From positions 1,089-65,088 of the forward strand of contig CAYNLG010000009.1 of assembly GCA_964397995.1 (NCBI GenBank): a DNA stretch of 64,000 bases, read 5' to 3'. The stretch comes from an uncultured Anaerolineales bacterium. Lineage in GTDB: Bacteria > Planctomycetota > Phycisphaerae > FEN-1346. This document shows positions 2,942-4,519 of the stretch, piece after piece; the first letter of the stretch is position 1; every line of letters begins with the position of its first letter. A program made the translations under genes and the position numbers. The notes under the pieces were generated by a model that saw nothing but the letters and a program-made list of their open reading frames with translations, did no database searches and was not told the DNA's origin.

Positions 2942-4519
2942 ATGCGTGTCTTCAAGCCGACGTACAACGACCGGGGTGGGACGTCAAAGCGGACCTCGCG
3001 GTGGCACGTGGAGTTCCGTGACGCCTGGGGCAAGAAGCGGAAGGCCGCGGCCTTCAAGGACAAGGGCTAGAGCCACGAGTTCGGCAAGAAGGTGGAGAAG
3101 CTTGCCGAGTGTGTGGCCAACGGGGAACCGCCGGACCGGCCGCTTCGGCGGTGGCTGGAAGGGCTCCCGCCGCGGCTCCAGAAGCGCTTGGCCACGGTGG
3201 GCCTCCTGGAAGGGCGGCGGCTGGCGGCGTCGAAGCCGCTGGCGGAGCATCTGGAGGACTGGCGGCAGGCGCTGCTCGACAAGGGCGCGTGCGAACGGCA
3301 CGCGCAGCAGGTCTTCTCGCGGGCGGAGCGAACGTTCCGGGCCTGCAGGTTCACCAAGTGGTCCGACCTCTCGGCCAGCGCCGTCATGCGGTACCTCGGC
3401 CAGCGGCGCGAGGGCGCGAAGCCCATCTCGGCCCAGACGTTCAACTTCTACCTGCAGGCCGTCAAGCAGTTCGCCAAGTGGATGGTCCGCGATGGCCGGG
3501 CGACCGAGTCGCCCCTGGCGCACCTGCAGGGCCTCAACGTGCGGACCGACCGGCGACACGACCGGCGGGCCCTGACGGCGGACGAACTGCGGCGGCTCTT
3601 CGAGACGACCCCCGAGCAGGACGAGCGCGGCGGCATGAGCGGCCACGAGCGGGCCATGCTCTACCGGCTGGCGGTCGAAACGGGGTTGCGGCAGAACGAA
3701 CTCCGGAGTCTGACGCGGGCGTCGTTCGACCTGGAGGGCGACCCGCCGACGGTGACGGTCGAGGCGGCCTACAGCAAGCATCGGCGGGACGACACGTTGC
3801 CGCTGCGGCCCGAGGTGGCGGTGGTGCTGAGGGACTTCCTGAGGGAAAGGGCGCCCGCCACGCGGGCGTTCCACGTTCCGAACCGGGACGTCATGCTGCG
3901 GGCCTACAAGCACGACCTACGGGCGGCGGGCATCGCGTACAAGACCGACGCCGGCTACGCGGACTTCCACGCGTTGCGGCACACCTTCATCACGCTGCTC
4001 GCGCAGAGCGGCGTGCACCCGAAGACGGCCCAGTCGCTGGCGCGGCACTCGACCATCACCCTGACGATGGACCGGTACTCGCACAGCGTCGTCGGGGACC
4101 ACGCGAGCGCCCTGGACAGGCTGCCCGACTTCGACCGTCCGAAGGCCGGTGCGGCCCGCGCGACGGGGACGGACGACCGGCCTGTCTTGTCGCAAAACTT
4201 GTCGCGATCCGGCGGGCGCGGGCGGACGGGGGCGGACAGCGGCGGACCGGCAAACGGCGAATATGGGGAGAAATCGAGCAAAACACCCATTAAACAGATA
4301 TCGACTGCCAGCCTTGAAAACCGGCGTGCCCTTCGGGGTACCGGGGGTTCGAATCCCCCCCTCTCCGCCAGGATTCGGCAGAAGAGCGGCACCCCGCCGG
4401 TCCGGCAGCGCGTCGGCGGCTTGCTTAGGGGGGCCCTTCGGGTATACTTCCGGCACGCACGCCTGCTGCGCCCCGGAGGACGCCGTGTTCGACCGCCTGT
4501 TCCGAGGTCCCGTCCTTGA
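2942..4519 (+). pseudogene. int: tyrosine recombinase/phage integrase interrupted by an in-frame TAG (3067-3069); the ORF stays open through the att-like region
   Basis: N-terminal arm-binding-like segment MRVFKPTYNDRGGTSKRTSRWHVEFRDAWGKKRKAAAFKDKG is followed by TAG, and the same frame continues into ORF 3092..4519. The catalytic region HALRHTFITLLAQSGVHPKTAQSLARHSTITLTMDRYSH carries the R..H..R..Y signature. The 120-aa C-terminal extension past the catalytic Tyr is atypical. The core domain probably ends near 4150. Confidence 0.7.
4334..4360 (+). other. tRNA/tmRNA-like 3-prime terminal fragment (T-arm GGGGG-TTCGAAT-CCCCC, acceptor CTCTCCG, CCA); probable att core of the integrative element
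   Basis: Canonical T-arm and acceptor 3-prime strand ending CCA, but no complementary 5-prime acceptor strand within 120 nt upstream, so it is not a complete tRNA. It closely resembles tmRNA 3-prime ends (GGGGGTTCAAATCCCCCC..CCA). It sits directly next to the integrase. Confidence 0.45.

Follow-up and report, generated by a model that had tools for sequence, protein, structure and literature searches.

A 3' fragment of a tRNA-Ser(UGA) gene beside an interrupted tyrosine integrase gene: the probable right junction of a small integrative element

A fragment of a tRNA gene lying beside an integrase gene is a textbook mark of site-specific integration. Genomic islands that use tRNA genes as targets leave an intact gene together with a displaced end fragment (PMC4383910), and among the 3,919 islands collected in Islander the displaced piece is a 3' fragment in 3,760 cases and a 5' fragment in 159, while the site is centred on the anticodon in 2,083 (Islander; Hudson, Lau and Williams 2015, PMC4383910). 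Integrases whose reading frame runs across attP, the element's own attachment site, have also been described, namely Mx8 IntP and SSV1 Int (cited in PMC4383910). The present work concerns a stretch of 64,000 nucleotides (nt) of contig CAYNLG010000009.1, referred to here as the window and numbered from its first letter, in which a 58-nt block at 4313-4370 on the + strand, a perfect 3' part of a class II tRNA, follows a tyrosine integrase gene (int). The region 4180-4370 is probably attR, the right junction of a small integrative element which lies in a tRNA-Ser(UGA) gene and is at least 5.4 kb long. This explanation is preferred because a tyrosine integrase ends directly upstream of the block, because homology to tRNA genes begins with the anticodon loop's first base, and because a pair of short motifs is spaced from that loop as it is in a related element.

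The locus resembles the islands of the Islander type in its tyrosine integrase, its tRNA target, the direct orientation of the end fragment at its edge and the apparent position of the junction in the anticodon loop, and it falls in the commonest class, that of the 3' fragments. It differs from them in its host lineage, which is probably Planctomycetota, and in its layout, since int adjoins the displaced fragment and reads toward it instead of standing beside the rebuilt gene. Placement of int beside the rebuilt gene is the more usual arrangement for an island. The element also recalls the pSAM2-type actinomycete integrative and conjugative elements (AICEs) and the P4-like and phage-inducible chromosomal island (PICI) satellites, which are small integrative replicative elements or phage satellites; like them it is small and combines int with an excisionase/AlpA-like helix-turn-helix (HTH) protein, a replication helicase, a repressor-like HTH protein and a tRNA target, but unlike them it has no recognised FtsK/Tra-like transfer gene, capsid-redirection gene or packaging gene.

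The initial annotation of this DNA drew attention to a string with the architecture of a T arm, an acceptor strand and a terminal CCA. That string is real: it occurs once in the window, at 4343-4370, although it contains a run of seven C rather than six and the feature ends at 4370 rather than 4360, and it was found in none of 100 shuffles of the window, even when 3 mismatches were allowed. The block to which it belongs extends further to the left, and its parts are as follows.

4313-4370, + strand: 3' part of tRNA-Ser(UGA), from anticodon loop to CCA, serving as attachment-site core and displaced gene fragment (from alignment, ARAGORN with a supplied 5' half, and assembly breaks)
4313-4319, + strand: anticodon loop CTTGAAA, anticodon UGA (TGA)
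4320-4324, + strand: 3' strand of the anticodon stem, ACCGG
4325-4342, + strand: long variable arm of 17-18 nt with a GC hairpin
4343-4359, + strand: T stem-loop, GGGGG/TTCGAAT/CCCCC
4360-4366, + strand: acceptor 3' strand, CCTCTCC
4367, + strand: discriminator base G
4368-4370, + strand: CCA

The block aligns to the tRNA-Ser(tga) genes of three relatives (L003-L005) from CTTGAAAACCG onward and not before it, so that the edge of the homology coincides with the first base of the anticodon loop. ARAGORN called no tRNA on the native block, to which no 5' half had been added, and it called a 90-nt tRNA-Ser(tga) once a designed complementary 5' half had been attached. Neither ARAGORN nor Rfam at its gathering score detected a complete tRNA or transfer-messenger RNA (tmRNA) at the site; the only tRNA found in the window is a tRNA-Val at 22097-22173. 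The statement that no acceptor 5' strand lies upstream was likewise borne out, as no partner pairing at all seven of its seven positions was present in 4100-4312. The suggested origin in ssrA, the tmRNA gene, did not survive: the match of the tmRNA model RF00023 is confined to the 18 nt of the T arm and reaches 13.7 bits (E=0.0012), where the gathering score is 47, and the features of the block include a UGA anticodon loop as well as a class II variable arm. Because ARAGORN returns tRNA-Ser(tga) when the missing half is supplied and the tmRNA model reaches no further than the T arm, the block is assigned, on this comparison of sequences, to the 3' part of tRNA-Ser(UGA) and not to tmRNA. The best match in a permissive Rfam scan was to a plastid family of 3' untranslated regions, in antisense, at 39.5 bits, a family which we take, from plastid maps, to overlap trnS. 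Folding of 4279-4370 gave a stability no greater than that of shuffled sequences, the variable and T hairpins excepted, and scans of 4100-4600 for promoters and terminators found nothing.

A separate observation from the Rfam scan concerns RF02223 (sX4), which matches the window at 4246-4438 with 27.2 bits against a gathering score of 70. Within the model of this Xanthomonas small RNA one stretch is the same as tRNA-Ser from the T arm through the acceptor to CCA, and the sX4 family may itself contain the tRNA-Ser 3' fragment of an attachment site.

The DNA between the conserved end of the integrase and the block is read as an attachment-site arm (P arm), and three features in it can be delimited.

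4186-4205, + strand: tandem motif CTTGTCGC-N4-CTTGTCGC with a 12-nt period; candidate arm-type integrase-binding sites in the P arm
4221-4247, + strand: GGCGGAC three times with a 10-nt period (4221, 4231, 4241), lying after the CTTGTCG pair and before the AT-rich patch
4262-4312, + strand: AT-rich patch, the part of the P arm next to the core (from GC content); its end, CCAGC, is an imperfect copy of CCGGT, the 5' strand of the anticodon stem

The tandem motif is a pair of copies of CTTGKCG which follows the last conserved integrase motif, ATGTDD, within the tail of the int reading frame, and its two copies in the window start at 4186 and 4198. The pair is intact in the window and in L003, L005, L006, L009 and L011; L010 has one degenerate copy and L004 has two. 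The distances from its copies to the anticodon loop downstream are 127 and 115 nt in the window and 126 and 114 nt in L005, and in the two relatives whose ends could be compared it stands in both attachment-site arms (L005 110-128 and 4598-4616; L011 361-379 and 9161-9179). When read in the int frame the motif encodes Leu-Ala or Leu-Ser, with the Leu codon always TTG in the relatives examined, GC-rich genomes included, so that the constraint seems to act on DNA rather than on protein, and the pairs are treated as candidate arm-type binding sites. No such pair is present in 4371-4700, and the right flank is therefore not the other arm of the element. The GGCGGAC repeats are possibly further protein-binding sites, or their repetition may be an effect of composition. 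The reverse complement of the repeat, TCCGCC, is also present at the tRNA's 3' end.

The AT-rich patch, which had also been pointed out in the initial annotation, is conspicuous: its 51 nt have a GC content of 45% against 72% for the window, and only 0.09% of all 51-nt segments are as low. It occupies the place where sense-oriented relatives hold the 5' half of the tRNA. The possibility that it is such a half in decay was rejected, since the 32 nt that stand in place of the 5' half share 7-9 of their 32 positions with tRNA-Ser 5' halves, a level that shuffled sequences reach as well. Judged by this comparison, the patch is taken to be DNA of the element, belonging to the P arm, and not a decayed tRNA half. 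Elsewhere in the window, 51-nt stretches as AT-rich as this one occur only at 8778-8843, 21993-22061 and 31131-31199. The second of these sits just 5' of the tRNA-Val gene and may be its promoter region.

The integrase belongs to a large family whose members are regularly found next to tRNA genes. About 4,000 homologs were retrieved, the best 120 of them at 48-62% identity and one annotated as Planctomycetota, the phylum from which the relatives probably come; a description of this integrase clade was sought, and none was found as far as was checked. The called products of the best 120 are 410-650 amino acids (aa) long, and many of these calls are over-long because the frames also read into the adjoining tRNA. 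In at least 65 of the 120 the tail contains a translated tRNA anticodon arm, which belongs to a sense tRNA-Ser(UGA) in 12 cases, to an antisense tRNA-Ser(UGA) in 10 and to other tRNAs in the rest. In the close relatives that were checked (L003-L006, L009-L011 and L014), the end of int either overlaps a tRNA gene or has one no more than about 250 nt away. Of the 12 closest cases with a sense-oriented tRNA-Ser(UGA), 11 have the 5' half next to int, as part of a complete tRNA in nine and as a 5' half only in two; the latter two look like attP sites.

Two of the relatives could be delimited as whole elements, one of 4.7 kb (L005) that carries HTH_17, Rep_O, HTH_3 and int and adjoins a tRNA-Ser(tga), and one of 9 kb (L011) that adjoins a tRNA-Arg(tcg). 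Their flanks are direct repeats of a tRNA 5' half, 46 nt in L005 and 44 nt in L011, which end 2-3 nt past the anticodon stem.

L005 10-55 and 4692-4781; L011 257-300 and 9264-9339: target tRNA with its 5' half next to int, and a displaced 5' fragment

These elements are like that of the window in belonging to the same integrase clade (about 45-54% identity), in the direction of int, which reads in the sense of the tRNA, in their CTTGKCG pair and in their gene module, which consists of an AlpA/HTH_17-like protein, a replication protein and an XRE-type HTH protein with int last. They are unlike it in the tRNA half that is carried: in L005 and L011 the 5' half stands next to int and a 5' fragment lies at the far end, as in the rarer Islander class (159/3,919), whereas in the window a 3' part stands at the int-proximal junction. 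What the repeats of L005 and L011 have in common with the block of the window is the anticodon loop and the 3' strand of the anticodon stem, which would place the crossover there. A distant relative (L037, 34% identical) has int, then a P arm, and then a sense 3' fragment of tRNA-Phe, and on either side it is bordered by phage genes for recombination and replication; its site appears to be attP-like and of the same design as the window.

These observations suggest the following mechanism. The integrase would exchange strands within the anticodon loop, and the two strands of the anticodon stem would serve as inverted core-binding sites, the element's own copy of the site, CCAGC, being imperfect. 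The attP site would carry a copy of the tRNA 3' part on its far (P') side, so that integration would rebuild an intact tRNA-Ser at the left end, outside the window, while the original chromosomal 3' part would be pushed to the right end, beside int. A broader proposal can be attached to this mechanism, namely that within one clade of Planctomycetota the same attachment-site geometry, with int reading toward the anticodon loop and one CTTGKCG pair per arm, is used with either tRNA half being carried, and that the window represents a recent switch of design, for example by way of an ancestor with a whole tRNA copy; this is offered tentatively, and the balance of opinion is against it.

If the target gene was rebuilt, then the block should occur a second time near the left end of the element. 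No partner copy of the 28-mer at 4343-4370 is present in the 64-kb window with up to 3 mismatches allowed, and indirect information was obtained instead from assemblies of public sequencing runs. Logan assemblies are built with k=31, so that each 31-mer is kept once, and contigs shorter than 150 bp are dropped (PMC12424806). In the Logan assemblies of three Sequence Read Archive (SRA) runs, SRR7048219, SRR7048224 and SRR7048228, this DNA is present at 100% identity, and in two of these runs the contigs of the element (L001 and L002) stop at 4342 and the contigs of the flank (L098 and L099) begin at 4342. These breaks imply a 59-nt unit, 4313-4371, which has different neighbours on its left and on its right. 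The bounds of the unit, which were derived independently of the tRNA alignment, are the start of the tRNA homology and the first base after CCA. A bubble caused by a single-nucleotide polymorphism (SNP) or a homopolymer at 4342/4343 was considered as a cause and rejected, since the contig ends overlap by exactly 1 nt, while a SNP would leave a gap and an indel in the G run would leave an overlap of 5 nt. As the pattern of breaks fits a 59-nt repeat, the block must have a second context in these samples, which could be the rebuilt tRNA at the left junction (attL), a further tRNA-Ser(UGA) gene or the DNA of a different organism from the sample.

At the other end of the element, three contigs from different SRA runs (L001, L090 and L091) share their first base, which lies 1,063 nt to the left of the window, and a second branch of the assembly graph must therefore lie there. 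The left end of the element is probably near this point, as is suggested by the first gene of the element, which encodes 342 aa and whose homologs are the first genes of related small elements. Searches of a viral contig collection with 30-mers of the core and of the left end gave no matches.

Several findings weigh against the interpretation of the region as the attR of an element that restored its target. The second context of the repeat could, as noted, lie in another gene or another organism; an exact 45-mer of the core in genome contigs and an exact 55-mer in metagenome contigs gave no matches, and the intact tRNA-Ser and attL are unseen. The first 30 nt of the left end (GCAGCGCCCAGTTTGCGGGGACAAGCTCAC) do not resemble a tRNA, do not occur in the window and contain no arm-type motif pair, so that the left end must be more complex than an attL followed by the first gene. 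The window is also the only one of the 12 sense tRNA-Ser(UGA) cases with a 3' part and no 5' half, and since all the rest have the 5' half next to int, an element that carries the 3' part would be exceptional in its clade. A rival account is that the tRNA-Ser(UGA) gene was split and never rebuilt, or lost its rebuilt copy, because the element had no 3' copy or because attL was later deleted, with another tRNA-Ser(UGA) copy serving the cell. It would explain why attL is unseen and why the Logan contigs do not begin in tRNA-like sequence, it could trace the repeat signal to a second tRNA-Ser(UGA) gene, it is in line with the lack, in the element of the window, of the 5' half that close sense-oriented relatives have next to int, and it suits an element that is already decaying, as the damaged integrase indicates. 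Restoration of the target gene is, however, the rule for tRNA-gene islands (PMC4383910), the 58-nt block is free of defects, and the repeat unit ends one base past CCA, as is expected of an element-borne 3' end of a gene; a split without repair is thus considered improbable, though it deserves to be kept in mind. That the two halves of the tRNA are expressed separately can hardly be credited.

The remaining explanations concern the origin of the block itself. A design of the 5'-half-carrying kind might have decayed, in that mutation or a small replacement removed the 5' half of a once complete tRNA next to int, and it is in keeping with this that the motif pair and the loop are as far apart as in L005, to within 1 nt, and that the patch is about as long as a 5' half; but the patch resembles 5' halves no better than shuffled sequences do while the 3' part is intact, and a sharp edge of homology at the first base of the loop is the outcome of a crossover and not of decay, which leaves this course of events very unlikely. 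The order of int followed by part of a tRNA also looks like the attP of L037 and like the tails of the homologs P0035 and P0105, as though the window held a free circular or plasmid element and not an integrated junction; against this, 60 kb of chromosomal genes (ResB, CcsA and tRNA-Val among them) follow the block, the P'-type motif pair is missing from 4371-4700, and no join is seen between the sequence to the right of 4371 and the element's left end, so that the idea retains scarcely any weight. Still less can be said for a 3' end of tmRNA or a string that is tRNA-like by chance, since the match of the tmRNA model to the T arm is countered by its shortness, by its score far under the gathering score, by the failure of ARAGORN to find a tmRNA, by the UGA loop and the long class II variable arm, and by the alignment of the block to tRNA-Ser genes, and since no shuffle of the window reproduces the 28-mer. 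The part of the initial annotation that saw in this block the residue of an integration is thus upheld in so far as a 3' tRNA-gene core lies at the edge of an integrated element, for which the adjacent tyrosine integrase, the homology edge at the loop, the tRNA-half repeats of relatives and the repeat at 4313-4371 all speak; it has to be amended in that the gene is tRNA-Ser(UGA) and not ssrA.

The integrase gene of the element, which lies attached to this attR, is itself interrupted.

2942-3070, + strand: N-terminal 42 codons of the integrase, closed by an in-frame TAG at 3068-3070 (from translation and alignment of homologs)
3092-4177, + strand: core-binding and catalytic domains of the integrase, to the last conserved motif ATGTDD (Pfam Phage_integrase, PF00589, 2.7e-19)

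The true start of the gene is the ATG at 2942, and its codon 43 is TAG, at a position mostly taken in homologs by a small or polar residue and in the closest ones (P0002-P0005) by Q. The same TAG is present in L001 and L002, which come from two other samples, and TAG can be regarded as an ordinary stop in this DNA, since it also terminates the 342-aa gene. The R/H-x-x-R/H/Y positions of the catalytic domain are invariant in the alignment of homologs. Only a product that starts at GTG 3092, such as the public 475-aa product (P0001), could apparently be made, and it would be without the conserved extra N-terminal segment of about 70 aa, which is a feature of the family and has no Pfam match. As this N-terminal domain presumably binds the arm sites and is removed by the stop, the element is probably unable to move alone, and it can be pictured as a small element that is probably immobilised and decaying.

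At the other end of the gene the int frame remains open through the tRNA fragment and meets its first stop at 4519. In this respect the integrases of the window and of most homologs are like Mx8 IntP and SSV1 Int, in that an open frame continues through the P arm into the tRNA, and the junction therefore sets the C-terminal tail. Unlike in SSV1, the catalytic domain is not split, and the tail past ATGTDD may be no more than an open frame. At 72% GC the chance of reading through about 110 codons is near 0.1, as estimated from base composition.

All genes to the left of the block are on the + strand, and int is the last gene of the element. The genes that precede it, and the first gene to the right of the block, are listed here.

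1-141, + strand: 3' end of the first element gene (342 aa, starting 887 nt left of the window); the whole gene is on Logan contigs L001, L090 and L091, 100% identical to the window
278-720, + strand: two small element genes of 75 aa and 72 aa, the second Cys-rich, without Pfam match (gene calls on L001)
717-1082, + strand: excisionase/AlpA-like HTH protein, 121 aa (Pfam HTH_17 4.2e-07, Phage_AlpA 5e-04)
1079-2680, + strand: replication helicase-like protein, 533 aa, combining a DnaB N-terminal domain with an AAA_25 ATPase (Pfam AAA_25 2e-38, DnaB 1.6e-22)
2714-2938, + strand: XRE-type HTH regulator, 74 aa (Pfam HTH_3 4.7e-08; identical protein on Logan contigs)
4485-5192, + strand: beta-helix protein, 235 aa, the first chromosomal gene to the right, outside the element

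The protein encoded at 717-1082 also scores 28.6 bits against the NCBIfam 'excise' domain, for which the cutoff is 28.8, and the NCBIfam matches of the helicase-like protein to DnaB families cover its N-terminal domain only. The DNA of the element to the left of 4313 amounts to at least 5,375 nt (on L001), which falls within the range of 2-200 kb used as a size criterion for islands, and a comparison of composition between element and flank showed no difference. The right flank, in which the beta-helix protein is followed by a HEAT-repeat protein, by ResB/CcsA genes of cytochrome c assembly and further on by tRNA-Val, is to be regarded, by its gene content, as chromosome. No relatives of the element's first protein were found in the genome contig collection. 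One element whose first gene is homologous to the 342-aa gene (61% identity over 46% of the query) occupies 887-9034 of contig L092; its replication protein is of the Prim-Pol/D5_N kind, and a large serine recombinase takes the place of the tyrosine integrase, a gene content which appears to indicate exchange of modules between small elements.

The feature at 4180-4370, understood as the junction described above, is an ordinary attR scar, a mark of integration of a known type which changes no concept. Its value lies first of all in annotation, as one exact boundary of a mobile element (4312/4313) is fixed in an uncultured and probably planctomycete genome, and as the call of a 475-aa 'protein' is recognised as an artefact that crosses the attachment site and the tRNA fragment, the actual integrase gene being interrupted. 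The integrase family, with its thousands of members beside tRNAs, its arm-site motif and its 5'- and 3'-carrying designs, may be of modest interest for bioprospecting.

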